Positions 1 through 48,712 of a stretch of 64,000 bases of DNA are shown here, piece after piece. A program made the translations under genes and the position numbers. Numbering within the stretch: position 1 is the stretch's first letter; every line of letters starts with the position of its first letter. Origin of the DNA: Trypanosoma brucei (lineage: Eukaryota). Under the pieces are notes generated by a model, which saw only the letters and a list, made by a program, of their open reading frames with translations, had not been told where the DNA came from and ran no database searches. The DNA is taken from contig CP000066.1 of the NCBI GenBank assembly GCA_000002445.1, forward strand, positions 128,001 to 192,000, given 5' to 3'.

Positions 1-708
1 AATGTGTTCCAAACCCTTTTTAATATTTTTACAACCCGATAGGGAGAGCTCCTCGAGTGTTTTTATCTCTGCTACAGGTGAAATGTCCGTGATATGATGG
101 CAATTATTGCAGCTCAGATGCAAGAGTATCCTATTACTGCTGATCTCAACGACGCACTCATCGTCCAACTCCGTGTTGTCCAAAGTCAATTTCCGTAAAT
201 TACTCAACGTCATAATATGCTCCAAATCAGTCTTCAACTTGCTATATCCGCTGAGATTGACTTCCTCCAAAGTTGGAACTCCAGAGAGTGCCCGAATTCT
301 TGACAGATCCACGCAATTTTCCAAATCCATCACAGTCCAATTACTCTCCTCTGCTTTAAGGACCTGCTCATATATTTTGGACGGCACCTTTCCTCCCATT
401 CGCTTCGTTAATTTCACAGGATCCACACTGCCGCTACAATCCTCACTCCCGATAAATGTTGTAGCGACTGAGCTTCTTCTTCTGCACCTCGCAAACCGGG
501 TGTTGTCCAACTCATAACGGAACGCAGGCCGACGGGAACATACGCTTATATCGCATAGAGGACACACTGATAAATCGCGATAGCACGTGCTACACAGAAC
601 GTGCTCACATGGCAACACTTCAATGGGAACCGCACACTTCATTAGGCACTGGGGACACCCTACTTCTTCCCTCACTGGGCATTCCGTCACCCAGGAAATC
701 TTCACCAT
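1..708 (-). CDS. RING (C3HC4) zinc finger + leucine-rich-repeat protein, ESAG8/LRRP-like; 3' part continues beyond the left window edge (partial)
   Basis: I translated the reverse complement of 1-1089 by hand and found one frame with no stop from 1089 down to position 1. It contains CPQCLMKCAVPIEVLPCEHVLCSTCYRDLSVCPLCD (C-x2-C-x12-C-x-H-x2-C-x2-C-x6-C-x2-C, a C3HC4 RING) followed by LRR units such as LSRIRALSGVPTLEEVNLSGYSKLKTDLEHIMTLSNLRKLTLDNTELDDECVV and LLHLSCNNCHHITDISPVAEIKTLEELSLSGCKNIKKG (the LxxLxLxxCxxITDxSPL pattern of ESAG8-type LRRs). It is missing from the ORF track because no stop codon lies inside the window. The likely start is the ATG at 708 (MVKISWVTEC...); the frame stays open up to the ATG at 1089, but that part is low-complexity. 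Confidence 0.6.
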   Translation of the reverse strand, partial: MVKISWVTECPVREEVGCPQCLMKCAVPIEVLPCEHVLCSTCYRDLSVCPLCDISVCSRRPAFRYELDNTRFARCRRRSSVATTFIGSEDCSGSVDPVKLTKRMGGKVPSKIYEQVLKAEESNWTVMDLENCVDLSRIRALSGVPTLEEVNLSGYSKLKTDLEHIMTLSNLRKLTLDNTELDDECVVEISSNRILLHLSCNNCHHITDISPVAEIKTLEELSLSGCKNIKKGLEHI

Positions 709-3700
709 TATGGGAGTGGGGTCAGCTAAACCGTTAACACACGCAAACGGAGAGAATGAGACAGTGTAAAAGCACAGCAATACTACTTTATTTGTTCGTC
801 TGCAGGCGCATGTGTAGGCGTATGTAAGTGTGGATGAATTTATATTGATACACGTGCCCGGATTAAATATGAAGTAAGGGTTGGCAACAAAGCATTTACA
901 TGTGTTGTCCGGTAAAAGCGTTGGTAGTAGGAGGAGTTGGTGTAGTTTTACTGCTTTGAACAGGGCATGACACGAATTGAAGGCTGGGAAGCCACTGCAC
1001 TTAGATGTGGTAAGTGTACACGGTGTCAAGGAACTTTTTGATAGCAGAGTAACTGTGACAGCGGTCAGAATTGCCCTGTAGACATACATTCACATATGCT
1101 TCCTCCAGACGTCGGTTTGGAAAATCAAGCCTCCTGTGGGTTTCTTTCTGATTTCCGAATCGACTTCGTTGGTGCATGCTTTTTACCCGAAGAGCGTCTG
1201 GTGTCTGGTTGCGAAGCGTTTTTATCTTTCCTGGCCCCTCAAAGTTTTTCAATCTACCCCTACATTTCTGATGAACGGCATCTCTTTTTATTGGACTGAC
1301 CCCAGCATGCTGTTGCACCAAAAGGTTACATCGTGTTTACAGTGTCAGTCTTTCCTGGGTGGACGATGCTTCACCAAATCTTCTTTGAAAATTCTCCCCT
1401 CCATATCCAGAGAGTTTTGATAAGAATATGATTACAAACTCTCTGGATGAACACTTCACTCCTGCGTTCCCTATTCTCAATTTTAATCGCATTTGCGACT
1501 GACCTCTCTAAATCTCCACTTTCGCTTTGACCCTCGTCAGCCGTCTCCTTCGTATTTATTGCCGAGTTTCTCCTTTACAGCAATATCCCTCCAGCAAATC
1601 TGGTTGTGCATGAGAGACAAGTGGCCCTTTTCAAGTTTTCCCTTTCTCTGCGGGTTTGGCCGGTTTTCTCACACGGCGCGTTTAAGTCTCCACTCCTTTC
1701 TTTTCTCTGACTCTCATTTACAGGACCTCTCCTCCCTTCGTGCATTATGAACTCTTATCGCCGTGGATCCTCCTCACCCATTGATTCGCTATCTCCCCGA
1801 TGGACGCCGAGGCAAGCTGGAATCAAATCCCAATCCTCCTTGTCCTGTTGGTAGCCTTACCCCAATCGAGCACACTTTCGAAGCACATAACACGACACAT
1901 TTGACCCCCTCAGGAGTCCTAAGTTAACCAAAATACGAACCCTTAGAAAGTTAATGCATTCATAAACCTTAAACCCCGCTGGCAGCATGAGCACACTTAC
2001 ATATCGAAACCACTTAACCTCTCGCAGCCATTGAGCCATTCCACCGTGGCTCAACATTACCGCAAACAACAAAGAGAAAAATCTCCCACTTCCTTGCTAC
2101 TTCCCCTTATTTTGTGTCACGTAACTATCACCTACAACGTCCACACTGCCAAGAAACCGCTTCCAAGCCCTCCTACATCTGCATGCGACTAATTACCCCT
2201 TTCTTACACGCATCTATATGGGTATAGTTCCTCCCACCAAATTAAGAGATCAAGAAAACCCCACACCCTCCACATCCGAACACCCTCGCATATACAAAAA
2301 ATAAACTGCCTGCAGTCCCTGCTCGACCCTTTTCTATGGTTCCAAACAATAATCCTGCTTAGTCTCCGCGATGTAACGAAGTTCCTCTCCTATCTCCCTT
2401 CTCCATCTTCCAGATCCTCCTCCCTTGACCCAAGCTATGCTTTACTCTCTGCCTTTCCTCGCACACATATTCTGAGGTGCGCACCACGACTATCAACCAC
2501 TGGTAACCCTGTCTCACAACCACATGTATGGCATTCCCAACTTCATACACAGGACAGAACGTACACCCCTAAAGTGAAAAAAAAACCTTGTGCACACAAT
2601 TCCTTCACAATGGTGATTGTGCTTACGCCCCTCAACCGCTTCTCTTGGCGGCCCTGCGTTGAAGTCCGCTCTCACCAAACTCTGCTCGCACGAGCCCTTC
2701 CTAACCAAAATTAAACTTCACAAACACGGGGAGTAGGATATGTTGCTTCTCATTGACCATTTCCTCCGCCTTCCGACTAACATCTGTCCCCATATCCCCA
2801 CCACACCTAACACTAAATACGAGGAATTTTGCATATGTTCTATGAGTCCGCACGCCTTGCATCTAATTGCTTATAATTCAACCCACTTCATCACGCTCAA
2901 TCCGAAAAGTCTAGGAATGCGACTCCAAAGTGTGGCACCACCTCCTTCCAGGTTATACACCCTCTTTTCACTTGAAGGAAGGAGCTGATGCCGCATAAAA
3001 ATAGTTTACTTTGGGAAATTCTAGACGACAGTATTGTGATCGTCGTCATTGCTGTTACCGTGTCTCCACTACTGTCTCAGCGCTTTGGACGTGAGCTCGT
3101 TTCACCTACCGGTCAGACGCATCTGGTAACGGCCATACTGGCGCTTGTAGCGTTGGGTGTTGCCCCATGCTCTTTATATCACACAAACCTGGCAGTGAGT
3201 AGTTTCTGCTAATATGCAATGAATCCTCGAGGCAGCTTCCGTTGCTGCTGTGCCTCAGCTGTTGTTGTATGCGTATATCTTCCGTGATTATTTTTACCGC
3301 CTGAGAAAGGAAATCTTTGCAGAAAAAATGTTTGGAAGCTTTGCTCATGCAAGCGACATCAGGTAGTAACGTCCGACTTGGCTACGACTACACCACGGTT
3401 AAAAGGCTATTGTCCCGATTCATGCCGGGTACGCAGAAGGTGCACCACGGGGCAACCGTCACCATTGGAAACCCTTAGAAAACTGCAGATGGGCGACCAC
3501 CTGGAGCTTATCATCTCCTTCCACACCCTCACTCGTGATGTCATCATTCCAAAAGCAGTGGAAAAGAAGGTATAGTCGGGAAGCGGAGCTAATGTAGAAT
3601 TCAAACTATCAAACATATAGTGTAAATTTTGGTCCAAACGCTTAACGACCCAGTGCACATACGCACAACGGCGCGTCACCTTCGCAACACCGGTCAAGAG

Positions 3701-6700
3701 AGAGAGATGTGCCTGCCGACTGCATCAAAGCAGTTGGCACAGTAGGCAACAAAAAGATAATACGCGGAAAGCGTAAACTAGATATTGAAGGTTTGCCCAC
3801 CCACTTCACAACCGCATTCCCCACGGAACAAGTGGCAGCGGCCCATTTAGACACATCGCCCGGTAAACGAGAATAACTAAGTTGAGAATAGGGACGAGCG
3901 ACAGCGCTCGATCCTCAGTTGCTAACAAATGCCCTGAGTCCCTTTCCCTTCCCTTACTAAGCGTCCCAGGACACGACCGCCGACCTCCAACACAGGTTCT
4001 CTACGGAAGGATAAACGATGAAGAGCAGGGACGCGGATGACACTGCAAAAAGGATTGGACACTGCGACTATGATGAGAATCCTCCAAGGCTTCGAGCAGC
4101 TCGTTGAAAACGAGACGTGGAGCATTTTGGAGGATGCTTTAAGGACACTCTGATACTGACGCCCAGCGACGCCCGCTTCGAAATGAACTTATATTCCTCC
4201 CGACAATTTATTGGTGATCCGTGTTTTGTGACACCCATGGAAAACATGGCGGATGTTGCGGGAAGAGGCGCTGGCAGCCGACACCACCGATCACACACCG
4301 CTTGAACATCCTAGCCCATTTCCACGCAGAAGTACTCCGTACTCAACTAACGAACAACCAGGTTCTCACTACCAACAGTTGACACCCTGACCTTCTCGCT
4401 AACATTGTTGGCTCATAACGGCGTTGTTGTCGAAGCACCCTCCCGACCACAGCTACTTCCTATTCTTTTTCTCCACAGATATGGAACACCAATAAAAATA
4501 AAGCTGATGCACAAATTATGAACACCGGTGACGAAGCGGTGAGAACACCGACGCAAACACCTTTTTAATGCACTAGATGTAAGCGCGCAAATAGGCATCT
4601 AGCAAACTCAAAGTGTTCATAACAACGCACTATTAGAGCGTATGTGCATGTTTGCATACATATGTTAAAGCAAAGAAAACAAAAGAGCAAACCATCTCTG
4701 TCGACGTACCAGTCCTTTCCTATGCGTTGTTGTTACTGGAAACTTTTTAATCCCGAGCGTCACCGATGCACTTCACCGACACGACGACTAACACTAATAC
4801 CATCGAAACGACTCCCATCCATGCCAGGAGCGCAGCACGAGTCGAGAGCTCCCCCTCTCCTGCTTCTGAACTTCCAAAAGTGGGGCACTCAATTCCACAA
4901 ATATATGTGTGATCGCCATACATTTCGTCGTCGTCTTTCGGGCAAACATCATTACTCGGATTTGCAGCTGTGACTGCATCCGTTGGTGCCGCAGCAGCGG
5001 AGCCGGGTGAGCCCGGTACGGCTGAAAAGGGGTTTGGGTTGACTTCATTCTCCGCCGTGGTGACAGCATTCGCCTCTTCCGGTTTGACGGCTGCGGCCAT
5101 CGTATGAACTTTCTAATGCCTTTGGGAATACGAATGTCCTATAACACGCGCAACTAACGGCAAAATGGAAGAGAACGATGTAGCAAGAAAGAAGCTTAAT
5201 ATCATGCTTTCCGAAAAAAAAAAATATGGTACTGTTTCCGACGTTATTGTAGAAGGATAACCGACCAAAGTATGTATCAATGTTGAAAAGACCCTCCACC
5301 TTTTTCAGTTGCGCCTATCGTACACGTTCGCTTGTCGTTTCCCCGAAGTGGTAACTGATTCAAACTTTTGTGTCTCAAAACCTCCAATTCCTTCAACTTA
5401 TACACGCACCGAAAACGATCTCCACGAGTTTGTTACCGACCTCAGGCCTCCCCATGATCTCTTTTTTCCCGTCAGTCAGATTCGATAGACGCGCTCGTGT
5501 TGGGTTAATAATAAAAAAAATCAGGTTTCAAAACAGTGGAGAACGAACGAGACCCGCGCGCGATAATTCCACAACACTATATGTACACCTTTTAGGTTTC
5601 CTCATTTGGGGTTAAAAAGCATCCTCATTTTCACGACCTCAGTACTTAACGCACTCAAATCCGGCACCACTAAACGTAAAAACAGGGCAAACCGCCATGT
5701 TACACCTTGCCCCCCACCCACACGCACTTTGAAGACGTCTCACTGCCATCGAGATATAATGCCTCCAACCTCATCTGCATTACATCGATCTTCCCAAACC
5801 TTCGCCCCTAACAGCCATCTCACTGGCTTTAAAAAAAAATTCCACATTCTCGCGAGCCCCTGCATATATCTTCTACTTTTTCGCACGCCCTCAAACCCGT
5901 CCATCGACATGCATTCCAACTTCGGTATTCCCTTCAAACCCTCCATATTTGCCAGGTACCAACGGACCAAGAAATTTACGGGACAAAAGACTTCGCTGCT
6001 ACGCTCAAGAACAAGATAAACACATTTCCCCCTCAGACAGATAAAATCCCCTGCGATTCCAAATCTCACTCGCAGCCTTTATGATATTTTTTGGAAAGCG
6101 CCTAGTTGCACCACCCCTACGACGCGCAGAAGCCGTATCATTCCTACACTGTCATTTACTCTGTCCTGATTTCTCAGCTACCCATTTCTTTTTCTTTTTT
6201 CGTTTAGCGTTAACACTAACCACAACTAAATTTGGTAGTACTCCCTTCCCTTCCACATATCCGTCACCTTTCATCAATCCTGCAACCATTGCTACTGCTT
6301 GTAGTTGGGTTCCCCCCCCTACCAAGGGTACAGTGACACAACGCAGCTACTTGGCTACACGAGCACCTATAGCATATCTGAGGCCAGTCAGTTCTTCTTT
6401 TGGATCGGTTGATCCTCAAAACAACCACCATCGTTCTTTCTCTTCTATCTGACCTGAATCCCCCTACGCACGAACAAACATCCGTGTGTGCAACTGAACA
6501 AACACATCGTATATGTCTAAAACAACCATACTCCCATTTCACCTCTTTTTGGCGACACAAACTGCCGTCCCTGGTGGCGAGCACAATCCCCTGAAGTGTT
6601 AAAAACAAAGACATCGATCTACTGTTCCCCTTTCCGAGAATCAGCATTTCAACATTGCTTCATAACATCCTCAAAACAACCACTCGCCTTATTATTATTT

Positions 6701-9700
6701 TCCTTTATCTCGCAGCTTGACAACGCAAACATTTCTTTCTATACTCTGCTCTACACCCTGCTTATACATAACGGGACTGAACGCCAACCCACCGAAGCGT
6801 TGACGCTTTCCAAGCAAAGGGGGCGTCTAAAACCATTATCCTTCACCTTCGTAAGGTTGGAAGGGTTATCACCGCACCGTTTCGCCAACGTTTACTCAAA
6901 TGCGTAACAGCAATAACCCAAGGAGCGCGAAGCACAGCCACTGCTGCGAATTGTCTCCACACACGTCGTGTCACTAAAGGGAGGGAGGGACCTCTCCTCG
7001 GTGTCAGCCTATATTAATCCATACCCTTAGAACTTGACACCCCATGTATGGGAAAAACGAGCCATCAATTCTTGTTCACTTCAAATCACCGTATTATCAA
7101 CAACAGCTGTCTGATGTTATGACGACAGAGAAGTTTGGAGTCTCGGTCATATTGCTGTTACAAAAACTTCCGCTACGATTGTGTCTCAAAATATTTTTCT
7201 AAGCATATTGGGTGATTTCCCACTTTGACATATAAACGATCAATGTGTCTGTGATCCAAACAGTGGAACAACATCATATCTCCGTAGAGAATGGGCTTCA
7301 CTACCCTCTCGAGGAGGTAAGCACTTACATTCCTCAGCAAGTAAGATCTTCATCGCATCCAAAGTCTGAATATAATTTGTTAGCCGCAGACGATTTCCTG
7401 TGTTTCCACTTGTTGGTTGTGCTCTTCCACGACTTCAGAAGGTGCAGGAACACGCCTTATTAAAGCAGAGACACAAGTTCCCTCTGTCTACAGGTCCCGC
7501 TTCTGGGTAAGGAAGTTCCAAGGAATATAACCAAGGGGATTTGATACATGCACCCATTATTCACATCATCCTGGTAATATTTAACTTTTCTCTCCACTTC
7601 TCAGCATGGGAAGTGAACTGGATACTATATCTCCTTTCATGAGCAAAGTAAAAAAAAAAAGATGTGTAAAACGTAAAATGATGACCTATGCAAGCTGCTC
7701 GCTCGTCCCACCCAGCATCACACTTACACTGTAAAATACTTATCCCTCCATGCAATAACACGTTTGATTCTTTTACCCAGGTAATAAGGTTTACCGTGCA
7801 GCAATAGCAGAGCGCACTGCTCCAGTGTAACACTAGCAGAACAGCGTGCCGATACAACTGCCGTTACCCACGCGACCTAAATGTTCCCCCCCAAATCATT
7901 TTGAGTGGGAGCTTCAGTAGAACGAGCAGCAGTCTGTCCAACTCTAATGGGACCCATCTCCCAAAAACGCTATTCCATTTCTATCATAAGCATCGCCGCT
8001 GTTCAAAATGCTCCATCAGTTGCTGGGTTGTGAATCCGATATTCATACGATTCCCTATGCTAGCTCGTGTTTTTTTATTTCTACTCGTGACGCTTAACTG
8101 CCCAGTTCTTGGGACAGTGCTAAGTTGCACAGACGGCTTCATCCAAACGTGTAGTCGGAACTAGAAGAGAATACACAGCAATGCCAAACAGTGGTTATAT
8201 ATCAAGGGGGAAAGGTGTTCCCTTTCGCACTCCACCTGCTTGAAAAATGGGCATGTCACTCTCGCCTGTATCGTTTCGGCACAACGGCCTTCCGCACATG
8301 ATCTCACAGTTTGCTAGCTAGTTTATACGTTTCATAATGCATCCAAGTTGTGTTTCTGTTCTCTACTTTTCTGTAGGACGGAATTAGGACAATGCTTTCG
8401 TCCTTCCAACTGTCACAGGGGGTTTTCTCCTTGCCTATTTCTTTTTTCTTTAACCTAAGCGCGTCACCGCCAGTGTCGGATTGTTTGTATCTAATGAACC
8501 TGTAAGTGACGATAAGTAAGTGCGCGGCGCCATATACCCCAATTCTGAGCTGCTACCGAGCTTTAAGCGTGGCGAAAAAGTGTTTATATGGGGAAGATGG
8601 GTTCTAAGCTTCGGTTTCAGCGCATAATAAAAGTCTTTCTGACACCCTGAAGATCAATTGCTTTTTAAAAGACGGTTCGTGAAATAAAACAAAATTGTGT
8701 GCTAAGCAGTGGACGAGTTATCATACGAACAAAACATAAGGAAGCTTCCTCGAACAACCATAACAAGCAATAGTTAGTGTATAATTTGCTTATGCCATCA
8801 TTTTTATTTTAAATATGATCATCCCCTTTGCCGCACAGATCATTTTAAATGTGTATCACTTAAAAAGAAAACCACTGCTCAAATAACGACGAAAAGAAAG
8901 TTTGTATAACGAGTTACGTCACGGTGATACAAACAAAAATTATGAATACCATTTCGATCAAAAGGCAGTTATGTTCACAGCTGCTGGAAGAGTGCCAGGC
9001 TGCGGCGAGAGTTGAAAGCTTTAAGACGGTCGCAAATCATTATAAAACCGTTTCCTCATTGGCACCTGAAAGCTCGGAATCCCCTTTTACTTCCTGCAAT
9101 GTTTCTCCCGTTTGTCATTAGGGGCGAAAAGTAAGGTATTAGTGCAGTACCAAATTTAATATGGTTTTGCTAAATAAAAAAAAATCTTTTGAAACGTTCA
9201 GAATGTTCCCCACATGGTTACAAGCGACCTTTTCTGGATGTACTAAAATACTCATCTTTCCAATTACCTTAACACGGGTGAGCAGCAACGCCATCACTTT
9301 CATCCATGTGCTGCAAATAAAGGTTCGTGTTTTCTACATGAGTGCACCCCTATTTTCCCCTTTTGTTCTCGTGCATCAAACTGGATTGCATATCTGAGTC
9401 AATATACCTCTTCTATTCCACAATTTGTCACAACACCCCCATATTTTGAGCTGATAAGTATTTAGCTATCTGCACCACTCTCTTTTTATTTCTAAGTACA
9501 GGTGATTATTCATCTGTGATATCCCCAAGTCTTTTGTCTTCTTAACCACCCCCAACAAATTTTAATAGTGTGCGCTAAGTTCGGCACATGCACGGCCTGT
9601 TCCCTCTCACGTCATTCCTTCCACTTCAAGTTATTCCCTTTGTGCGAAATCGTTCGTTAAGTACTTGCACTTTGAATACTTGAAAGGCAGGTGTACGAGC

Positions 9701-10288
9701 ATGGGAAGTGGCGATATTGGACCATCTGCCACTCAGTTCATCCTCTTAACAGTAGTTCCCATCATGCCACAAAACTAACGAAATGACTGTTCCCAGTAGC
9801 ACATTTTTTTTCTCCGTGTCGCCTGCTGCAAAAGGGGAAATGGTTTCAATACCTAAAAAAAAGTGCCACATGTTAACGTGTTGGAGGTAGACGTAAAACA
9901 AATCTCCCTACGACATCAACACTTAAAATAAAAAATTAATGCCCCCGTCCCCATATGCCGCCGAAACATCACTGCAGGATACTTGGCTTCCCAACCGTTG
10001 TGAGAAAAGTATGTTCAGTTCCCTTGCACTTTCGCTGCCAAACCGTGTCGCGAGCAGTCAGTTTCCCATAGAGGGATGCAAGGCCCATGATGCTGCTAAA
10101 TGCCGCGACACCGCCAGTGAAAGCTTCAACCGCCGGATGGCCCGTTTGGTTTTCTTTACCGCCTTTGGGCCCTGTCTTATGAATCCGTCACCAGCCTCAT
10201 ATTCGGAGCCGATGCGTGTCCCGGGCCCGACTCTGAGAGCCGGGTTCGTTTGAGTATCACATCATGCGGAACAATACCGCCTCCCCTC

Positions 10289-10294
10289 CACACA

Positions 10295-10335
<41 letters not shown>
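10289..10335. repeat. (CA)n dinucleotide microsatellite, about 23 units
   Basis: Direct reading: cacacaaacacacacacacacacacacacacacacacacacacc. Confidence 0.95.
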
Positions 10336-10336
<1 letters not shown>

Positions 10337-13300
10337 ATCATGTGATCCCCGCGACGAGGTTAGTGAACTTGAAAACGCTGCGGCCCAAAATCAGTCAGGC
10401 GCAGCACCTCTCCCTCTTTGAAGCGACCCCTTCCCTCAAGTGCGATCAGGGTGTGGGGAACACCCCCCTTTGCCACACTGAATGCAGAAAGTCGGCCAGG
10501 GTCCTCACCCTTGTGGAATTACCGTTGGGTCTGAAGCGTTCATAAAGGACTCTGCCGTAGGTAAGGGGAAGCGAAAACGCAAATGCGGTCCACTTTTCTG
10601 ACACGGCTGCCGATGAGGTGCGCATCGCCCGCCAGGCTCCCACTGAGAAACCAAGCGACGATGGCAACATGTCACATCTGGAGGCAGGCCGGCATCCGTT
10701 CTGGGTTGCGGCAACTCGCTGCTGTTCATTGGCAACTGCTGCGCCAAAGTCCGCTGAATGTTGCGCATTAAAATTTGGCTACACGGTTCCCCAGCTCGAG
10801 CTTTTCTGCGAAAGGGTATCCTCAATCCCGCCTCCTTGGTGCGACCCGCCACGACTCAACTTTTTCCGCGCTGTCGTGCACAGGGGCGGGTTACGCGCCA
10901 CCCACACTTTCAAGGGCTTTTTGTACGGCTTGGCGTAGCCAATCAGACGTGTTCGAGCTGGTAGAAGACGGCGGGACGTTTTTTTTTTTTGCAGATGAGT
11001 TGGAGAAATGGGCCAGAGATTGGTCACAGGGAACCCTGGTGGCGCTGGATGAAGGTTTTGTTTCGGCGAAGTCCCCGAATTCCAGCATTAGCGACGCTAG
11101 GTTAAAGAACCCATGATTCGGCGCCGTTGACAACTGCGTGATGGCTGTGTCCGTGCCCTATACTTCTCAGTTTTGCACTCCAGCGATTTTGTTTGGGTGA
11201 GGTTCGCATGCTGGCGACTCTTCTCCGATTGGAGTGGGGTTAGCGGCGCCTCAGTTATGGAAAGGGCATCAGGAAAGGGATTGTGCTACTCGTGGGGCAT
11301 CTGCCGATCCCTTTAACCTCCGTTATCTGCCACCACTGCCATGGGATTTGGCCCAGCAGAGGGCGGCCTTTTGTGTGCTTGTGTGCGAGTCGGTGCCTGT
11401 GTAAACTGACTTAACCCGCTGGCCGTCGTTGGTATTGAATTTAGCGGATGAATACTTCAAGTCTTCATTTGGTTACCTGTGCAACTTTTCTGTCAGGGAG
11501 CGATTTAGGATAATGTTTGTGGCTCTTTAAGACATGCGGATCCAAGGGGAGATAGATTGAGAGATGCTCACACGCGCGTTTTTGCTACACCACGAACATT
11601 AACTTTCGAAGCTATAAAGGTATTGTTAGAAATACAACCGCTCCAGATGTACACAGTCGTTTTTCTATTTGATTTACTTTCTTCAGTGACAGCACCTCTC
11701 GGTGCGTGCCATGACACTGAGTCTTTACTGCACAGCTTGTTTGACCACTGAACACTGGATCAATCAATCGAGCAAGATAGTGATATATGTGTTTTCGCCC
11801 GCTAATTGCTGATTTGTTTTTAATAAATAAAACATTCATGTTTTTTGTTGTGTTTGTGCAGTCATACTACTCATTGACAATCTTATGTTTGGGTATTCAC
11901 AGGATGTATGTATCGTCGTCAGTGACTCTCCTGGTATTGTTGTCCTTATCACTGCAAACCACAGACCAGGCAAGTACGATCATCAAAGTGTGCGTTCACA
12001 CTGTTACAGGTTTTTGACGGGAAATGTTGATGCTGGTGTCTTTATTAGTTATTGCGTTGTTACTCTCTCATGTGTATTATAAAGTAATCGTGAAAGTTGT
12101 GTACGAATCGGTTTTACCAACTTTGCGTTGCGCTGAATTACTATCTTCGCGCCCGACAGCACCATTGTCGATCCTGGATGTATTTTATGTACGCTTACGT
12201 GATACCGCAAATATGTGTGAGAAATCATTGTAAAAGGGTCGATAACATTTATTTAACGTCGTTGACAGTGCGATGCTCATGATTTTTTCGGACTGAGAAA
12301 CTAAACTTAGAAACAGTATTGTGACTCGTATATGCCAACGAGTGAAGTTGTTGCTTTATTGGCCCTCCTTCTGTCGTAATTGTTAGGTGCTTAGGCCACG
12401 CTCTGAAAGGCATGGATTATGACAGTGTTTAACGTAACTGATATTCCTCGTTCTGGTAGGACCGAGGATTACCTCCTTTGGCAAGTTACTGGCAGTTCGT
12501 GGATTACATTAAAGTGGGATATCCTTTCCCTTACGTTGAGGTTGGTTAAATGCAGAGAAGATTATCTTAGTACTTTTTGTCACGGTAGTCGGCAAAAGCA
12601 TCCGTTTTCATTTCAGGGGCATGCGCCTCTTTGCTTTCGTGGTTCCAACATTTCACATGTAATCTCGAGCGTGTCGGTTTAGCACGCTCTTTTCAGCATC
12701 GTGAGCCTTCAAACACGACACTTCTTTAAAGACTGAGCAACCCAATTTTAAAACCGTGGCGAGTGTGAGCTCTGTGCTCTATTTCTGTCATTTGGTTGTC
12801 ACATTAATGGAATGGAACATAGCAGGGTAACAGCAGTAAGCGGTACGAATTGGAACAATACTCATTCATCGGGATTGTGCCGCATCCGAGGGCATAACTT
12901 CACTCTACGAGCATTGCTCTGCAGTATTGGGTTACTGGCTGATTCAATACCATCAGCACTCTTGATCACACTGCTATGAAGCTGTATGGTTGTAAACGAT
13001 GAAGATGTTAGTCATTCCATCAAATCGAACGACATTTTGGCATCACCATCTATCGTAAATGAGTTCCGCCGCTTACCGTTTGTACCTTAGAACACTTCAA
13101 GTAGCGTGAATGTTGGTGCAACTGCAGGTTGACAGTTTATCATAAGGAAACATTTTATTAATGTGTACGGTGGTGCAATACCATTCTCTGTAAAAAAAAG
13201 GGGGGGAATGTATTACAGGAGATGTAGCAATGACAGAAGGAACGGCTGTAACTGGGTTGAACGAGCAGGAAATGGTCGATCAGCGCTGGTCTCCCTGCTG

Positions 13301-16300
13301 CCGCGAGGGGTTGAGGTTATTTGGGTTTCTACTTCCCAATGTGCGCATTTGCTGCTTGGAGTTAAATCAAAAAATACTGTGATGATACCAGCCCTGAATG
13401 ACCCCCTGTGTTCTGCCGCTTGTTCCAAGACAACCCCTTGTACGGGGGAGAGTAGCGGTAACGGCTGTTAAAGCGGATAAACCACACACAAAATAACGTA
13501 ACTTGGCATCCCGTTTACCATCCCTACTTTCCAGCGACTGATCGGGTAGGTTACGTGCATACTCTTGGGGGTCAACACTCTCCCATTAGATAATAAAGAG
13601 ATAACCTACTGTTTCACAAACCATCTGCGTTTTCTGGCTACAAAGGTTTATGTTGGGTAAACATCTGCACTATTGCAGTACAGACTTCACATTTTACAGG
13701 AGGCATATTCGCGGGACGAACAAGCGTAACGCAAGTCATACACTGGTAGAATGCCACTGCAACGGCACGGTCCTCCATAGGAAAAGTGTCGATACTGGTT
13801 CGCCACATCGCAAGGGAGAAGCAGACAGGAGCGAAAGACACTATTCTCATAGAAAAAGAGCGATTGAATAGCTTGCCAACAAACTCGGGTGCGCGAGGCA
13901 AAGAATGGCTCGAGCGTGCCCCAAAGAAACTAGGAATATAAAGGAGGTTACGCTATTGTCTCCGGTAAGAATGGAAACACAGACGACAACACCAAAAACA
14001 GATACACTGGCGCAACACTTCTTGAGCAAAGAGCTGAAAATCTTCTAAATGGAATGACGTTATGTGACAATGTAAGCGGAAAAGTAGCGGAGAAACATAA
14101 GGTGAAAAGTGCGATCAAAGGAAAGACACAGAGTGATGGAGAGGAAAAACATTTAAGGCAAGAACCACAGAAACAGCAGCCATCAACTCAACCAATCAGG
14201 AATTCCCACCGAGGTTACAAAACACGCAAGAAATAATTGTCACCAGGCCATTGCCGATAAAGGGACGGCTGCAGCTGTAATATCACCGGGGGCTGAGGAA
14301 GTAAGGACATATTATTTCCATGGAACAAGCAAACTAACGCGCAGTTACAGAGCATAAACTGTGCAATGAAAAGTGGATTCGAATCACTCGTAGGTGCCCC
14401 CAGGAATGCATCGAAAAAGTGGGAAAGTAATAGCATTTACCAACTCGTTGTCCCGGCCCGTTGTCTCTCACAAAACGGAGACCGCGAGTATCAATGAGGA
14501 AATCCCGTAGCTCAAATTAAGAAACTCCGTATAATTAACTGGAAGAATGGTAAACCCAACGTTTGAAACTGTATTATTACACCGTAGTGAAATACAAACT
14601 GGTGAACCGGCATGAAAAGACAACTTGGTGCCACAGCAGTGCTCATTGCGGAAGACGGGCGTTATTAAAGCTGTGATGGAGTGGAAACCAAAATGAAGGA
14701 AATCAATTTGAAAACACACAAAATTCCAAAGTGTGCCCCGACGAGGAATCGTATGAAACGCATCCGCCCCATGCTGAGGGGGATATCTCTCTTTGCACGA
14801 AAAAAGGTTAATACTGATCCGGTTTCGGAGAAGGACAACAAGGCATTTGTGTGGCACATGACAACAATATGGAAAAAAGAGAACGGACAACATCAAATAC
14901 AAACGGTGTTCTGTTGTGAACATTGACAGCCCTCTTCAAAAGTTTTTGTTGCAATGGACGGGTGACCGGCCCCAAAGCGCCATCGCGGCCAAGTGCAATG
15001 CGACAAAAACTTACTCATATGTCCAGTGCACTTTATTATACAAATGCGACGTGTTTTAGCAACTGACCGAGCGATAAACAAGCATCAATGGGAAAGGAAA
15101 AAGAACATGGAAAGGACTCCGAAAAGGAAACAAAACACAGATAACATACAGAGTGGACTCTAACTTCCATGCATCTATTGTATTTTATTTTATTTCGAAC
15201 AAATGCAATTGGTATGGGAATGCGTGCCACGACGCTTCTGAGGGAACCTTCCAGACGACCTTTTAGAAGCAAAAGGGAGACCTATCTGAAGAAACGGTGG
15301 AGAGCAAGGAAAGGAAAAAGGCTAAATTGACCCTTTCGTCCACCAAGCGTACCAACTGGGTGGGTGGTTGAGGAAGCGCAACGACACAGGTCATTCAAAC
15401 GGGGGCGAACAGAAGGCGCGGCCAAAAGCCCAAAGGACATATCACCAGGAAAATATGGCGGGGATGTGGAATTTCAAATGAGCCCAAGGAATTTTAAGCG
15501 AAAGGGGGAATTGGCATGTTGCAGGTGCAACAAACTGGATCACCGTGTCAAAAACCGATGGCACAGTCATGCAAACAAGTTGAAACCAAAGTTCCCCATT
15601 CGCCACAACAAATGCGGTTGACACTGGATAACGGGGCACTCGAAAAGCGACAACCCGAACGACCGAAGGAGTACCAGCGCCATGTTGTAAAAAAAGAAGC
15701 GCAGGCACAATTAAAAGGATGATTAAGAAAACGAAGCGCGAAAGGTAAAGGATGTGATCGCAGAAAGGAACGTGAAGGATGACAGCGAAAACACTGTATT
15801 CCTTGAAAAATTAGAGATGGTAATGCAAAAAAGGGCGGACTGAAGCGCAGAGTAGAGCACGGTACAAGATGTCGATGGTGCGATTATTAGCCTGTTCACT
15901 TGTCAGAATTGATTTTACACACCAGGAACAAACACTTCGATAAAAATGCAATGGGAAGAGATTGAGAAGCGGAGCGTTCCTAGTATTGAAGACGGTTCCA
16001 AAGGATCTCCAATGTACGCAACACCCGACAAAATGTATGGAACAAGGTACCCTCATCGAGCACTTGTAGCACTGGCGTGGGCACAAAATAGAGGGCTGCT
16101 GTGACGCTCTAAGAGTAGGGTGAGTGGAAACTCCCACACACTTACTACAATGAATAGCCCCTGAGCACTAAGTGGATAATGTGGCTTGATTAGACCCGAG
16201 AAAAGAGGTTAACGGCTTCGCGTAAATGTGGAAATTTTCTTGGTAAAGTTGTTTAGGCCCGACGATGTAGAGAAGGAAGCGCTACCTCCCTCCGATGCGG

Positions 16301-18994
16301 CACACAGAAATCCAAACAGCAAGGTTTAAAGGTATACGTTGGCTGAAACCATGGCACGTAACAATGCAACTAAATCGGAAGATGCCGGTGGCATCACTGT
16401 TGCCAGCGCGAACAGACCTAACGCCGCAGTGGGTGAAGTAGTAATGCAAAGTCGACCGCTAGCTAAAAGATGTCAAACAAAAAGTAAACATAGGGAAATG
16501 CTAGGTACTTAATCGATGGGTGGTAACAAACCCAAACAAAAAGTAGAAGATATCGTTGAAGCAGGCAGATACTGAACAGGCAACGAAGAACAAAGGGGCT
16601 ACCGGCTTGCAGAAATAACAGAAAGCAAAGTGTGGGGTAAGGTGTGGAAAAACAACGGGGAAACTGACTTTTTTGGTGTTAGTTGTGGTGATATTTTCAT
16701 ACACCTAAAGAGGGTGGTCGAGCCAAAGAAAAGGTGGCAAACGCGCAGAGGAACCGCGTAGCTGCATTGACCTGTGTGAAAAGAAAAAAAAATACTTTAC
16801 CAGCATCCGAGGGTTTGTATATTTTGTGTACAAACGAGGGTTGAATTGTGATTGTCACGGGAGTCCGCGGGAACTATAAGAACAAAGTAGAATTAGTAAT
16901 GCATTCAGCGGGCTGCGCGTTAGTGCCCTAGAACATGCTTGCACTCAATACTTTCATTCCCATCACCGTATCTATCGTCGTTTTCATTGCTCCCCCCCTA
17001 TATTCCCGTTATTCCAAGCTCCTCTCTGCGGATTTGCTTGCGATTTAACGCCTTGCTCCCGTCGCATGGCCTTACAAGTGAAACATCGATGAGAACACGC
17101 AACTTCCCCTACGATAAAAGTTGAAAATGCAAGGCATCACACAACCTGCCGACACTTGTGTATTCCATGGCTTCGAAGGGGAAAAACACGTTTCCCAACC
17201 AACGTGAAGAATATTTTTTCGAAACGACAGAGAAGCAAACAAAGCAGATTGTTTCCCCACTGAATGTGATATTCCCCGGAGTTTTCTTTGTGCAGGTTGT
17301 GGGTCGTGAGGGCCCACTTAGTTCGATTCAGGGCATCTTTTTCCTTCCCCGGGGCTGGAGATCGCGTGAAACAAAGGGCGCGGTCACTACCACCAAATCC
17401 GCTATTTAATCATCCCATTTATTAGGAGCATGTACGTACGATGAAAAGAAAAGAAAGTAAATTAGCACGTGCATTTATACATGTGCGTGCCTCTCCCCCA
17501 TATTCCCTACTGCGTTCCACGTGTTGCGTAATTGCCTTTTTTTGACCGTGTTTTATCCCCTCGCGTAGCCTCGTCGATTGCTACATTTTACCTGAAGGCG
17601 AGGGGTGAACCGCATCCCCGGGAACGTGTTTTGTAGGTTCGTCTGATGGTTTAGGTGTAAAATATCTCGCCTCCGGCCGCTCTCGTTGTGCGCTGCGTCT
17701 AATCGGGCGTTTTTCGAATTGGAAGGGCGTTAGCGCTCTTTTGGTGTTTTTCACTGATGTGCAAAAAAAAAGTGGGTGCTTTAGGAGGTTTGGTTTTTGT
17801 CGTTTGCCACCGTGCTTCGTCCAGTTGAGACGCTGGTTTGAATGATTTTACAACCTGAGTGGCCCTCGGTACCTCTTTTTCCGAACCCTAGCCACTTATT
17901 TTCCGCTGTTTTACCACGTATCGCACATCAGATTTTTGAATCCCTGATAAATGTGGATGTGAAACGTGGGACCCGAAAGCGCCTTGGAGGACATGAGCGT
18001 GATGATGAGACGAGCACAGCAACGACTGGTCGCGCATGAGGCAATGGAAATTACACGCACTTTTCCATCGCTCGTATTCCGAGTTAAGGGGCAGGTTGGG
18101 TGGGTGCTGCAGCGGCTCGTAGCCATCCTCTTTTCAGATATTAAAAAAGGGACACGAAAGTCGAGGCAACTGCAAATGGGCACGGAAACCCGGCGACAAA
18201 TTGTGCTTCGATGTCGCCCTACACAAGCCATATTATCTCACCTTGTGTGATTTCATCAGAGCGCTTCCACCGCAGAGTCCCAACCAATGATGTGTGCAGC
18301 TAAACCAAACACGCCAGAGTACAGAGCAGAATAGGTTGCAACACAATACAATGGTCGCGACACCGTAGCGCATGGCGATGGACAACGGCAGACGCACTTC
18401 ATTCGCAAACGAAGAAACTGGTCCGAAACTTGCTGCGGCCGATGCGTGTCAGCATCCAATATTACGGGACTTTATCAAGTTATCGATTGCTCGGAAAGGA
18501 AACGAGACCTCGTGGCGTCAAGAACGACATGCTGCGGTGTAATTTTGTGCTGTTTGTCCTGCTAATAAACTCAATGGCTCCATTCCGGGGACGCTTCATT
18601 TCAAAACCTTTTTCAGTCAATGTCAGAAAAAATGTGAAAACCCCGAACGCGATTTATTTTATTGTCCACGGAACCAAACACACAAATACCCCGTCAAGAG
18701 AGTTGGTGTTTTCAAGAGAGAGATTAACCTCAGTTTCGGGAAGAATATTGAACGAAAAGTCTTTTCCCTACGAAGTTGTTCAAAGATTTAACTCTTTTTT
18801 TTTCTTTCACCCTATCGCGTGCGTGGGGAATTGAATTAATCCCCCATACTTCGGAAGCTAAAAATGGGGAAGATGGGTACCACTGGCTCACCCTCGCTTT
18901 TCTTTTGATTCCCGACCCTACACGCTGAAGGTCGGTGTTCTTTTTGGTAGCGCACAAGAACGGCAGTCCACTCACGTGCGCAATCCTTGTTTTC

Positions 18995-19075
18995 GTCACA
19001 GAACTTTCCAGTCCCGTTTTAACTTCAAAATTTCCGTCTTTTTTCTTTACACTTTACTGTAAGCGCGGTATCAAA
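18995..19075 (+). promoter_or_regulatory. Polypyrimidine tract and AG dinucleotides upstream of the transporter ATG (candidate trans-splice acceptor region)
   Basis: Pyrimidine-rich run ttttcgtcac...cgtcttttttctttacactttactg 40-120 nt upstream of the ATG at 19115, with AG dinucleotides after it. This is the usual kinetoplastid arrangement for spliced-leader addition. The site itself is inferred, not mapped. Confidence 0.4.
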
Positions 19076-19114
19076 GGGACTAACCATCGGTTTAAGGCAG
19101 TCATAAAAGTAAGA

Positions 19115-20503
19115 ATGATGCTCGGGTTCGAATCGGTTTCTGAGTTTACAGTCTACATCACCTTTATATTCTTCGGAATGTCGGCGGTGGTGGTGACAAC
19201 TTCCATATTTTCGATTCCATTCTTTTTTATCGAGTACTACAAGTATGCGCAGGGGGATCCCAATGCAGAGGCGGAGGATCAAAGGTTTTGGAATAACGTC
19301 TTCACGTACTACAATGCCACGACGTTCCTTGTGGAGTTCCTTCTGACTTTATTCATGCTGACAAATCTTGGAAGGCGGATCCCTCTGGCTGTTCGACTCG
19401 GTGCCGGTCTCATCCTCTCAATTTTGGCAGTTTTCGTCGTGATAATGGTCACCATAATAAAAACAACAGAAACCGGCGCCAAGGTAACGATTATGCTCGT
19501 CGGTGTGATCAATGGTGTTGCGGCAACACTTTGTGACACCGGAAACGGTGCCCTTATTAGCCCGTTCCCTACAAAATTTTTCAGCGCCGTTGTGTGGGGT
19601 GTCGCAGTTTGTGGTATCATCACATCGTTCTTCTCTATCGTAATAAAAGCATCTATGGAGAGCAACTACGAAAGCATGTTGACACAGTCCCGAATTTTCT
19701 TTGGCTTGGTTGTCCTTCTTGAAGTGGTTTCCTGCATCCTCTTGGTGCTTCTGAGGAAGAACCCATACGCCATGAAGTATGCAGCAGAGTTTCGGTACGC
19801 CGCAAGGGAAAGGACCAATGCTTGTGAAAACAAAGAAAGTGGCGCATCAAATGGCCCAGCAGAACAAGATGAAGACTCCGTGGCGATTGATAATAACACC
19901 ACGAAAGGGAACGTGATGACGGTCACCGTGGACCCCGACACCATGAAGGACACGGACCAAGTGGAAGACATTACAAACTCGCAGCAAATGCTGAAGGCGA
20001 AGGTATCTGTGGTGCTGAAGCGCGTCTGGCCCATGCTGGCGGCGGGTTTCCTCGCCTTCTCCACCACATTTCTCGTCTACCCTGGTGTATTCTTCGCCGT
20101 CAAAACCGATGTGCCAAACGGTTGGTATATGACTATTACTGCGGCGATGTTTCATTTCGGTGACTTCCTATCGCGCCTCCTCCTTCAGTTCAAGCGGCTG
20201 CAGCCTTCACCACGTTATGTTGTGGTTGGGACATTTGCACGTGTCTTTCTTATAATTCCTCTTGTTTTCTGTGTGCGCGGTATCATTGGTGGCACTCTTC
20301 TCCCTTACATTCTTTCATTTCTTTGGGGCCTCACGTACGGATATTTTGGCGGGATGGCGCTAATACACACGCCACGCACCGGTTCACTGACAGCAGCTGG
20401 TGAACGCTCTCTTGCTGCCAATTGTGCCGTCATTGCGATTCTGTGCGGTCTTTTCTCCGGCTCCATGCTCGCGCTTGCCGTCAAGGAGGGACTTCCTCAA
20501 TAG
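19115..20503 (+). CDS. Equilibrative nucleoside transporter (ENT family; adenosine/nucleoside transporter-like), multi-pass membrane protein
   Basis: ORF 18935-20503. The N-terminus MMLGFESVSEFTVYITFIFFGMSAVVVTTSIFSIPFFFIEYYKYAQGD matches the start typical of trypanosomatid NT/AT nucleoside transporters, and about 10-11 hydrophobic segments are present. I trimmed the start to the ATG at 19115 (MMLGFES); the 60 codons upstream read like flank sequence. It is the only long plus-strand gene in the window. Confidence 0.7.
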   Translation: MMLGFESVSEFTVYITFIFFGMSAVVVTTSIFSIPFFFIEYYKYAQGDPNAEAEDQRFWNNVFTYYNATTFLVEFLLTLFMLTNLGRRIPLAVRLGAGLILSILAVFVVIMVTIIKTTETGAKVTIMLVGVINGVAATLCDTGNGALISPFPTKFFSAVVWGVAVCGIITSFFSIVIKASMESNYESMLTQSRIFFGLVVLLEVVSCILLVLLRKNPYAMKYAAEFRYAARERTNACENKESGASNGPAEQDEDSVAIDNNTTKGNVMTVTVDPDTMKDTDQVEDITNSQQMLKAKVSVVLKRVWPMLAAGFLAFSTTFLVYPGVFFAVKTDVPNGWYMTITAAMFHFGDFLSRLLLQFKRLQPSPRYVVVGTFARVFLIIPLVFCVRGIIGGTLLPYILSFLWGLTYGYFGGMALIHTPRTGSLTAAGERSLAANCAVIAILCGLFSGSMLALAVKEGLPQ

Positions 20504-23500: not shown

Positions 23501-24523
23501 CGCGCAATTCGTCACAGCACTCATTTCCATGAACTATACGGAGCGCTGCCTCCCACAGCAATGGGCGGAGAATAAAATCCAAATGTTTTTCCCATCATCC
23601 GTTACATAATGTCCTTCGGGCGAATAAACTCCTGACCGTTTATGTTCAAAATCAATTAATGATGGTGCTGAATAAGTTCCGCCCAATTCCGTTCATTTCC
23701 AAAGACGCCATTTACAAGTGCCCACCGCACGCAGCCGAATTTTACCGGCAGCTAAACTTCACCTCTTTGTTAAAATACGAAAAACTTTAAACAGTAGTAA
23801 TGGAATAATGCCTCCAGCCTCTACAAACGACAGCCGATGCTAAGGCCTTTTCTACTTGTTTTATGCGTGAGAATTTATGGAGAGAGCAAATAACCGAAGT
23901 TGTGAAATAGCGTAGATGGCAGTCGTAACGCAACATCACGGGAATATGAAACGAAATAGCGAGTCACAGCTATCACTTTCTTTATTAAAGCAAAAGGAAA
24001 AAAATCAAACCAGGAGCAAATGCAAGTTGAAAATAAACCTGGTGGTAGAGTGGTATAACTGCCCTCTCCCACTTTTGAGATTGAGAAACAAAAAAAGCAG
24101 CAACAACATATAGTCATTCCCAATTTCTTTAGTAAACTTGCGTGCCACTGTACGTTTCGCAAATATTAAAATCTATTCACTACTGACTCAGGTCGAATGT
24201 TAAATATCATCGTAAAACGCCATTCGGGGCAAATGGCGTGTTTAAAGCTCGTTCAAAATATCCTACAGGACATTCTCCCCCTATGGTTCATATAATTCAC
24301 AGCCCCGTAACGATTTGAAGACGGTTATACCATTATTAGGAAATAACATACTGTAGGAATTAGAAGCCCGTTGAAAGTGCAGGTGCCACGGATACTGCGG
24401 GGATATATTCGCACACATAATCAAGGGTGGATTAATTCACATAAGTGAAAAAGACATAATATTAACGTTGTCGAAAAGCATATATTGATTGCGGATGGAG
24501 GGACCAAATGACGCCTCATGCAC

Positions 24524-25222
24524 CTACAGGGAGAATAACAATACTGAATATATTGTGTTGTAAATCGATCGTAGTGGCTGTTCAGAAATACTTCCCTGTT
24601 GCTCAGCCGGCCGGGATGGACCCTCAGATTCAGTTGGAGCGTTCACTTTCTTATTGGAACCTGCAACTTGTTTTGCGGGTGCGTAATTACCATCACTTTG
24701 CGAAACCTTTTGGCTGGGTTTATTTTCTGTCGAATCATCACGTTTTCCCGCTGGACTGCCAATCCGTTTCTTCTCTCCTGGTGGTGATGGGGCCGAGTCG
24801 GGACTGTCAACAATGTTGTCTCGAGCCTCTGGACCTGATGGAACCCTCGGCTCCGGATTCGTGTCACCATTTTCTTTCACTTCTGAACCCTCCGGATTTG
24901 CGACATTTAGTCCGAAATAAACGGCAAGGAGGGCCCGGTTGCAAGTGTATGTCCACGGACAGCCCAAGCCGCCGATGCAGACGGTGCAGTTTCCTGGTCG
25001 ATCTCTTATTCGCCACTCTTTTTTCACTTCTGTGCAGTTGGCCCTTGCATACTGAGCTAGCTGCCGCTTTCCCTCGGAAGTGGACAGGAAGTTACTTCCG
25101 CCAAAGCTTGGGCAATCAGACACGTGAGCTGTTAAAAGCGGTAAGTTGGATGTAGAAGCGTGCACTAAACAAAATGTCAAGACAAACAAAATTAGCACGC
25201 ACCAAGCCCCAAACCTTGACAT
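24524..25222 (-). CDS. Candidate secreted/GPI-anchored cysteine-containing surface protein (hypothetical)
   Basis: ORF 24524-25297 minus, trimmed to the ATG at 25222. MSRFGAWCVLILFVLTFCLVHAS looks like a signal peptide. A 6-Cys module follows (CPSFGG...CTEVKK...CTVCIGGLGCPWTYTC), then an acidic Ser/Pro/Glu/Gly-rich extended region, then a short hydrophobic C-terminus YSVLLFSL consistent with a GPI signal. It has the same orientation as the downstream minus-strand array. The overlapping plus ORF 24508-25155 looks less protein-like. Confidence 0.5.
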   Translation of the reverse strand: MSRFGAWCVLILFVLTFCLVHASTSNLPLLTAHVSDCPSFGGSNFLSTSEGKRQLAQYARANCTEVKKEWRIRDRPGNCTVCIGGLGCPWTYTCNRALLAVYFGLNVANPEGSEVKENGDTNPEPRVPSGPEARDNIVDSPDSAPSPPGEKKRIGSPAGKRDDSTENKPSQKVSQSDGNYAPAKQVAGSNKKVNAPTESEGPSRPAEQQGSISEQPLRSIYNTIYSVLLFSL

Positions 25223-28694: not shown

Positions 28695-29054
28695 GGCAAT
28701 ACGGACTGTTTCTCTCTTCCTACCAGTTGTTGTTGTTGTTGGTAGTTGTTTTGCGTGAGAATTGTAAAAAAAGAAAAGAAAGCGAAGAGACGTCACAAAC
28801 AACAAAAAAAAGTGTGTGTGTGTATGTGTGTGTATGGAGGGTTATTGTGCGACAATAATCATGCTACCGATAGCATTTACTCATGTTCAAGCGATTAGGT
28901 GGGGAAGTTACGGAACCGTGGAAAAACAAATGTGCCCAACCAGTATGCACATCGGTTTACCGCCAACGGCGCCTTTTCTTTATATTCGACTCGTCACTTC
29001 CATTTAAACGGTTACAGAAAGAAGATGTTTCTCCTCATCATCATTTTCCATGAT

Positions 29055-48665: not shown

Positions 48666-48712
48666 TCTCTTTCTTTCTTTCTTTCTTTCTTTCTTTTCTT
48701 TCTTTCTTTTTT
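48666..48712. repeat. (TTTC)n tetranucleotide repeat inside a 2.3 kb low-complexity spacer (46426-48778)
   Basis: ctttctttctttctttctttctttcttttctttctttc read directly. The surrounding 2.3 kb is almost entirely homopolymer and simple-repeat sequence. Confidence 0.9.

Follow-up and report, generated by a model that had tools for sequence, protein, structure and literature searches.

Unannotated spliced RNAs probably account for an 18 kb gap on the gene map at a divergent strand-switch region of Trypanosoma brucei chromosome 3

A 64,000-nucleotide stretch of Trypanosoma brucei chromosome 3 (chr3; strain TREU927, GenBank assembly GCA_000002445.1, contig CP000066.1, positions 128,001 to 192,000 of the forward strand), referred to below as the window, was analysed for the nature of an interval of about 18 kb (window positions 1090-19114) that lacks long open reading frames (ORFs). 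The interval lies between a minus-strand LRRP gene (Tb927.3.580) and a plus-strand adenosine/nucleoside transporter gene (Tb927.3.590). It is very probably a normal divergent strand-switch region, the flanks of which are filled by unannotated spliced RNAs of two diverging polycistronic units. RNA polymerase II (Pol II) would initiate in both directions within a core of 3.6 kb (8661-12297) that is GC-rich at its centre and has a clearly GT-rich sense strand on the plus-strand side and a modestly GT-rich one on the minus-strand side. The leftward transcript is converted by trans-splicing and polyadenylation to the RNAs Tb3.NT.3, Tb3.NT.2 and Tb3.NT.1 and continues into the LRRP gene; the rightward transcript gives Tb3.NT.4, Tb3.NT.5, Tb3.NT.6 and then the Tb927.3.590 mRNA. 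Published RNA-seq, together with the splice-signal and peptide matches obtained here, shows processing into these six RNAs.

Transcripts were taken from Kolev et al. (2010; PLoS Pathog 6:e1001090, PMC2936537), who described 1,114 novel trans-spliced and polyadenylated transcripts from RNA-seq mapped to version 4 of the TREU927 genome. Coordinates and abundances were read from their Table S7, predominant splice sites from Table S12 and types of transcription unit from Table S14. The chr3 coordinate equals the window position plus exactly 128,000, which fits the splice sites of Kolev et al. The initial annotation had suspected long non-coding transcripts in the interval, and six long, unannotated and mostly non-coding ones are indeed listed in Table S7. 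These and the gap between them are as follows.

842-3531, minus strand (chr3 131531 to 128842): Tb3.NT.1, 2689 nt, 0.57 RNAs per cell, AG directly upstream of 3531
3631-5153, minus strand (chr3 133153 to 131631): Tb3.NT.2, 1522 nt, 2.89 RNAs per cell, polypyrimidine tract and AG at 5153
5249-8660, minus strand (chr3 136660 to 133249): Tb3.NT.3, 3411 nt, 1.59 RNAs per cell, first processed RNA of the minus-strand unit
8661-12297, no strand assigned: divergent strand-switch core, the 3637 bp gap between Tb3.NT.3 and Tb3.NT.4
12298-13600, plus strand (chr3 140298 to 141600): Tb3.NT.4, 1302 nt, 1.59 RNAs per cell, first processed RNA of the plus-strand unit
13646-17448, plus strand (chr3 141646 to 145448): Tb3.NT.5, 3802 nt, 0.48 RNAs per cell, AG at 13646
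17569-18964, plus strand (chr3 145569 to 146964): Tb3.NT.6, 1395 nt, 1.26 RNAs per cell, polypyrimidine tract and AG at 17569

The published 5' ends and predominant splice sites were compared with the window sequence at 12 sites, eight of them belonging to Tb3.NT.1-6 (one each for Tb3.NT.1, 2, 5 and 6, two each for Tb3.NT.3 and 4) and the others to Tb3.NT.8, Tb927.3.590, Tb927.3.600 and Tb927.3.610. All 12 lie directly after an AG, most of them behind a pyrimidine tract. For Tb3.NT.2 the predominant splice site is chr3 133153 (Kolev et al., 2010); Tb3.NT.3 has sites at chr3 136560 and 136660, with an AG at both; and Tb3.NT.4, for which the predominant site is chr3 140387, has an AG at window positions 12298 and 12387. 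Adjacent RNAs are separated by 45-120 nt, as is characteristic of a single polycistron in which polyadenylation and trans-splicing are coupled. The peptides that Ericson et al. (2014; PMC3942054, additional file 1) print for ORFs of Tb3.NT.1, 2, 4 and 5 match the window verbatim, Tb3.NT.4_5 within 13133-13471 and Tb3.NT.5_3 within 13934-14236, both on the plus strand. The Tb3.NT names and the gene IDs Tb927.3.581-586 were not found in the main text of the literature. Tb3.NT.1-6 are absent from the 'putative non-coding' transcripts of Kolev Table S11 because they contain ORFs of at least 25 amino acids (aa).

The processed RNAs diverge from the core, with Tb3.NT.3, 2 and 1 on the minus strand to the left of 8660 and Tb3.NT.4, 5 and 6 and Tb927.3.590 on the plus strand to the right of 12298. 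Kinetoplastid divergent strand-switch regions usually measure 1-10 kb. The size that had been presented as abnormal is thus reduced to a normal one, since only 3.6 kb lie between the first processed RNA of one unit and that of the other; the apparent size of 18 kb arises because none of the three RNAs nearest the core on either side is annotated as a protein gene. The presumed divergent strand switch is itself borne out by Kolev Table S14 (PMC2936537), in which Tb927.3.590 forms a plus-strand Pol II unit of type 'Divergent', being both the first and the last annotated ORF of that unit.

The base composition of the core was analysed independently of the transcripts, and three features were delineated.

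10000-11500, no strand assigned: GC-rich island at the centre of the core, 53-56% GC against about 45% around it, with a run of 12 T at 10979-10990
10289-10335, minus strand: (CA)23 on the plus strand, read as (GT)23 on the minus strand, upstream of Tb3.NT.3 and the minus-strand unit
10912-12297, plus strand: candidate GT-rich promoter region, GT 0.573, directly upstream of Tb3.NT.4

Cumulative G minus C along the plus strand declines, with a slope of about -89 per kb, from about 1 kb to its lowest value at 10911, inside the GC-rich island, and climbs from there to about 17 kb with a slope of about +43 per kb. On the left arm, whose sense strand is the minus strand, C accordingly exceeds G on the plus strand, and on the right arm G exceeds C; in the sign of its skew the long minus-strand unit at 28-64 kb agrees with the left arm. 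The segment 10912-12297 has the highest plus-strand GT content of all windows of equal size in the 64 kb (percentile 1.0). GT-rich elements can drive directional Pol II transcription in T. brucei (Wedel et al., 2017; PMC5579346), and the composition of the core would fit such elements by analogy. Its identity to the genomes of T. b. gambiense DAL972 and T. equiperdum OVI is 96.3-96.6%, which indicates no special conservation.

GT-rich tracts at about 17.5-17.9 kb had drawn attention as a possible Pol II start for the transporter, and this raises the alternative that each flanking gene has a proximal promoter of its own, a GT-rich one at 17.5-17.8 kb for the transporter and an AC-rich one at 2.0-2.3 kb for the LRRP gene, with a silent spacer of 15 kb between them and hence a truly oversized strand-switch region. 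The tract itself is real: 17521-17820 has a GT content of 0.637, lies in the top 0.08% of 300-bp windows and is the most GT-rich plus-strand window of that size in the interval, and 2007-2329 is among the most GT-rich segments on the minus strand. The same published capacity of GT-rich elements would serve this alternative, and the transporter, described in the literature as differentiation-induced, is sensitive to bromodomain inhibition. The 'spacer', however, is transcribed, with spliced RNAs of the right polarity over 842-8660 on the minus strand and 12298-18964 on the plus strand, so that spliced plus-strand RNA is present from 12298 onwards, 5 kb upstream of the supposed start. The 17.5 kb tract spans the processing site between Tb3.NT.5 and Tb3.NT.6 and coincides with the pyrimidine tract, splice acceptor (17569) and 5' part of Tb3.NT.6. 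At the kilobase scale it is not the most GT-rich segment, a position held by 10912-12297, and the switch in GC skew falls at 10.9 kb, away from both genes. Proximal promoters in place of a central start are therefore considered very unlikely, while additional internal starts at the 17.5-17.8 kb and 2.0-2.3 kb tracts are possible.

Several points weigh against this explanation of the interval. The exact position of initiation within the core is one that we infer. The GT content of the minus strand of the core is modest, reaching 0.57-0.58 only at 10000-10750, a segment that includes the (GT)23 repeat. Kolev Table S14 (PMC2936537) lists no minus-strand partner unit, because that unit has no annotated ORF except the LRRP gene. 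The RNA-seq data come only from procyclic T. b. rhodesiense, in which the RNAs are of low abundance. Finally, Tb3.NT.5 is A-rich on its sense strand (A = 0.338), the opposite of the T-richness usual in untranslated sequence of T. brucei. Tb3.NT.5 corresponds to the A- and purine-rich segment of the initial annotation, whose strand skews were reproduced: pyrimidines make up 59% of the plus strand at 1-3 kb, and purines 58-62% (A 32-36%) at 14-17 kb.

The coding potential of the six RNAs was assessed by comparing every sense-strand ORF of at least 40 aa that begins with ATG with its counterpart in OVI or DAL972. In Tb3.NT.1, 3, 4, 5 and 6, these ORFs are disrupted in the other genomes by frameshifting indels, premature stops or loss of the ATG, or differ there by mostly non-synonymous changes. 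All those of Tb3.NT.1 are altered in OVI except one of 56 aa, which has two synonymous changes; those of Tb3.NT.3 have indels or have lost their ATG in OVI; those of Tb3.NT.4 have stops or indels in OVI or DAL972; and those of Tb3.NT.5 have indels or mainly non-synonymous changes. A search of 5.8 billion proteins with eight of the longest ORFs, joined into one query, found no protein homologue. Judged by the identities to other strains given below, the sequence of the six transcripts evolves like the surrounding non-coding DNA and unlike coding sequence, and five of the six RNAs (Tb3.NT.1, 3, 4, 5 and 6) would be non-coding, fast-evolving and similar to long non-coding RNAs (lncRNAs).

The sixth RNA differs from these in containing one ORF that is probably translated.

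4747-5100, minus strand: 117-aa ORF of Tb3.NT.2, with a C-terminal hydrophobic, membrane-anchor-like segment

This ORF was printed by Ericson et al. (2014; PMC3942054) as Tb3.NT.2_2 [54-404], corresponding to 4750-5100 on the minus strand of the window, and only two stretches of the interval score positively for codon usage, this ORF being one of them. Its C-terminal hydrophobic segment reads …AALLAWMGVVSMVLVLVVVSV…, and its N-terminus has no signal-like segment. Compared with OVI it has 3 differences, a threefold shortfall against the 11.3 expected at the rate of the flanking sequence (Poisson P = 0.004), and none of the three is non-synonymous. The annotation of T. equiperdum OVI contains the identical protein (TEOVI_000838000, 'hypothetical protein, conserved'), and that of T. 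b. equiperdum a variant with one changed residue (DPX39_030007000, on a chromosome-scale contig). No other credible homologue was found with HMMER among 1.84 billion representative proteins; a repetitive protein of 841 aa with 36% identity was judged to be a chance match. The ORF thus appears to be under purifying selection, and its product is probably a genuine small membrane protein restricted to the T. brucei group. Of the two small ORFs that had been proposed as the best candidate genes of the interval, 4747-5100 on the minus strand is probably a real gene, and 2988-3212 on the plus strand is antisense to Tb3.NT.1 and without support. A further-reaching interpretation would make the six RNAs more than by-products of RNA processing close to a start site, namely a T. 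brucei-specific regulatory module, in which lncRNA-like transcripts tune the stage-regulated LRRP and adenosine transporter genes and the 117-aa ORF is a new lineage-specific membrane protein; we regard this as speculative and unlikely.

The 3' end of Tb3.NT.1 (window position 842) lies 247 nt within the coding sequence (CDS) of Tb927.3.580, whose ATG is at 1089. Tb3.NT.1 may be a long 5' untranslated region (UTR) of Tb927.3.580 that was cut short by low coverage, or it may reflect premature polyadenylation inside the gene in procyclic cells.

The absence of long ORFs from the interval was confirmed. Allowing ATG, GTG and TTG starts, the longest start-to-stop frame has 151 aa (14468-14923, minus strand). 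The longest stop-to-stop frame in 1090-18934 has 176 codons (18304-18834); in block-shuffled copies of the sequence (500-bp blocks) the longest frame was 165±27 codons, and 30% of the copies reached at least 176. Long frames are therefore not depleted, and in its ORF lengths the interval matches non-coding DNA. A positive codon-usage signal was obtained on both strands at 10.45-11.55 kb; a gene at this position was rejected, since the score tracks the high GC content and is positive on both strands. ARAGORN detected no tRNA in the interval, and Rfam gave no credible match in it, either at the gathering threshold or at E≤1. A scan for bacterial promoters and terminators, a model that is irrelevant to T. 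brucei, returned only chance numbers.

The sequence is complex and not composed of simple repeats, as had been noted: Tandem Repeats Finder reported (CA)23 at 10289-10335 as the sole tandem repeat, and neither direct nor inverted repeats of at least 30 bp occur inside the interval. Sensitive self-BLAST of the 64 kb found nothing common to 1-24 kb and the remainder. The length of the (CA)23 microsatellite varies among strains.

These properties bear on the alternative of an incidentally transcribed array of pseudogenes or retroelements (ingi/DIRE, RHS, VSG/ESAG, or copies of the LRRP or transporter genes) that have degenerated too far to be annotated. In its favour, the sequence is complex and contains few of the pyrimidine and purine tracts that characterise intergenic DNA of T. 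brucei, the sense strand is purine-rich in both arms, as in coding sequence, and the locus lies at a break in synteny. Just beyond the orthologue of the GNAT gene, with which the conserved gene cluster ends, a weak retroelement endonuclease domain (Exo_endo_phos_2) is present in an ORF of T. vivax (14230-15105 of its locus), and an RHS gene (RHS_N, RHSP; 14892-16658 of its locus) in T. grayi. Since the content past the GNAT orthologue differs in this way, the block of LRRP gene, non-coding RNAs and transporter sits at a synteny break with lineage-specific content in each species. All homology searches were negative, however. The six frames of 1090-18934, with stops converted to X, were scanned against Pfam-A at E≤1 and gave only noise from unrelated families (best E 0.04-0.7), with no reverse transcriptase, endonuclease, RHS, VSG, ESAG, LRR or transporter match. 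Searches of the interval by tblastn returned only chance matches with all proteins of the window and 30 homologues of the nucleoside transporter, and nothing with all ORFs from the syntenic T. vivax and T. grayi retroelement and RHS regions. The remaining 46 kb of the window and the loci used for comparison yielded no dispersed-repeat copies, and the self-repeat and longest-ORF searches described above were likewise negative. Decayed pseudogenes, which the initial annotation had offered as one explanation and for which it had proposed such scans, were thus not found. An array of this kind is considered quite unlikely, and an ancient pseudogene or retroelement origin below the level of detection is possible. 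A centromere, which in T. brucei is marked by an AT-rich tandem array with units of about 30 bp to 147 bp and by a mapped topoisomerase-II cleavage site, was rejected as well, on the absence of tandem arrays in the interval and on the published map, which places the centromeric repeat array of chr3 between Tb927.3.3410 and Tb927.3.3430, about 0.7 Mb away (Obado et al., 2007, Table 1).

A collapsed repeat in the assembly had also been suggested; for such an artefact, whether a collapsed or a chimeric repeat, nothing speaks beyond the lack of annotated genes. DAL972 chr3 is colinear with 9060-27882 of the window at 96-97.6% identity. One contig of OVI is colinear with 16489-30497 (97.3%) and a second with 1-13966 (97.0% and 95.5%). 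The only break in the alignments within the interval, against both DAL972 and OVI, is at the (CA)n microsatellite (10296-10327). The 117-aa ORF is found on the T. b. equiperdum chromosome-scale contig as well, internal repeats are lacking, and the published splice sites map to the exact base. With colinearity in three independent assemblies of the T. brucei group at 95.5-97.6%, a collapsed repeat is excluded, and an assembly artefact of any kind is extremely improbable. Identities to OVI and DAL972 were as follows.

Six transcripts: 95.7-98.1%
Convergent region, 21.3-24.5 kb: 97.6-97.8%
Transporter CDS: 98.9-99.1%
LRRP CDS, part in the window: 98.7%
GNAT and DEAD-helicase CDS: 99.5-99.8%

Within the first group, Tb3.NT.3 is 95.9% identical to OVI. 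The non-coding DNA of 1090-24523 differs by 2-4% in DAL972 and OVI, against 0.2-0.5% for nearby housekeeping CDS.

The genes that flank the interval, and the region in which the plus-strand unit meets the next one, are listed below.

1-1089, minus strand: 5' part of the LRRP gene Tb927.3.580, ATG at 1089, open frame that continues beyond the window edge
19064-21297, plus strand: mRNA of the adenosine/nucleoside transporter Tb927.3.590, CDS 19115-20503, final RNA of the plus-strand unit
21298-24523, no strand assigned: convergent strand-switch region between Tb927.3.590 and the end of the long minus-strand unit
24524-25222, minus strand: Tb927.3.600, last gene of the long minus-strand unit, splice site at window position 25240

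The LRRP gene was named Tb927.3.580 from the offset to TREU927 and from the order of gene IDs in PMC2837033, where it is reported as bloodstream-enriched and extremely low in libraries of the procyclic form. Its product has a RING-like Cys motif and leucine-rich repeats (Pfam LRR_4, E = 1.9e-7). The Tb927.3.590 protein is 100% identical to TREU927 XP_843655.1 and has the Pfam domain Nucleoside_tran; its best database match is an 'adenosine transporter, putative' of T. b. gambiense (98%), the 90% cluster of which includes XP_843655.1. The splice site of its mRNA is chr3 147064 and its poly(A) sites are chr3 149232-149297, or 21232-21297 of the window (Kolev et al., 2010); an AG precedes the splice site at window position 19064.

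According to Kolev Table S14, the long minus-strand unit runs from Tb927.3.860 to Tb927.3.600. ATGs derived from published 5' UTR lengths gave the annotated protein lengths for GNAT (186 aa), Tb927.3.600 (232 aa) and the DEAD helicase (808 aa). At 24507-25297 long ORFs on opposite strands overlap; TREU927 and OVI use the minus-strand Tb927.3.600, the DAL972 gene list has a plus-strand ORF of 245 aa instead, and the minus strand is favoured by the codon-usage score and the mapped splice site. Nearby, at 25001-25500, identity to DAL972 is only 81%, and the BLAST pieces 23856-26865 and 25451-27882 overlap out of order (DAL972 locus 15374-18387), a pattern suggestive of local duplication or rearrangement in DAL972 with respect to TREU927. 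Further into the unit, a direct repeat of 280 bp with 96% identity (39972-40251 and 61847-62122) occupies two intergenic regions of the long minus-strand cluster and is the only sizeable dispersed repeat of the window. About 3.5 kb of the same cluster (46600-50100) is without an ORF of at least 200 aa and, unlike the 18 kb interval, is rich in long pyrimidine and purine tracts (pyrimidine tracts up to 309 bp per kb).

For scans of kinetoplastid genomes, the locus illustrates that the length of a strand-switch region measured from ORF to ORF can exceed its real length severalfold, because spliced non-coding RNAs and transcripts with small ORFs occupy the flanks. The present analysis adds that a minimum of GC skew and a maximum of GT content, obtained from sequence only, coincide with the 3.6 kb core defined by RNA-seq, that five of the RNAs evolve in a neutral-like manner while the 117-aa ORF carries a signature of purifying selection, and that pseudogene remnants are not detectable. 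The current understanding of trypanosome transcription is unchanged by these results. The locus is ordinary; it belongs to two described classes, and its transcript map has been public since 2010.

The interval resembles the centromeric strand-switch domains of degenerate retroelements in T. cruzi and T. brucei (Obado et al., 2007) in being long, gene-free and next to an LRRP gene, and differs from them in that an AT-rich tandem array is absent and no remnant of a retroelement is detectable. The first of the two classes to which it belongs comprises the divergent strand-switch and Pol II start regions of T. brucei (Siegel et al., 2009; Kolev et al., 2010; Wedel et al., 2017), with which it shares a core of a few kilobases between two diverging units, GT-richness of the sense strand on the plus-strand side, a GC skew that flips at the centre and the type 'Divergent' in Kolev Table S14. 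From its membership in this class, 5'-triphosphate RNA ends and Pol II enriched at the core and the chromatin marks H2A.Z/H2B.V, H4K10ac and BDF3 would be predicted. Unlike in those regions, the first three RNAs on each side are unannotated here, which leaves an 18 kb hole on gene maps, and the plus-strand unit has one annotated ORF only. The second class is that of the novel transcripts and lncRNAs of T. brucei, the latter with 1,428 genes or about 11% of all genes (Guegan et al., 2022). Tb3.NT.1-6 are themselves entries in the catalogue of novel transcripts, and like other members they have an acceptor AG behind a pyrimidine tract, are polyadenylated and of low abundance, lack a conserved ORF and evolve at a non-coding rate. 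They are set apart by standing six in a row, over about 14 kb and on both sides of one start region, and by Tb3.NT.2, which, unlike a lncRNA, probably encodes a small membrane protein.

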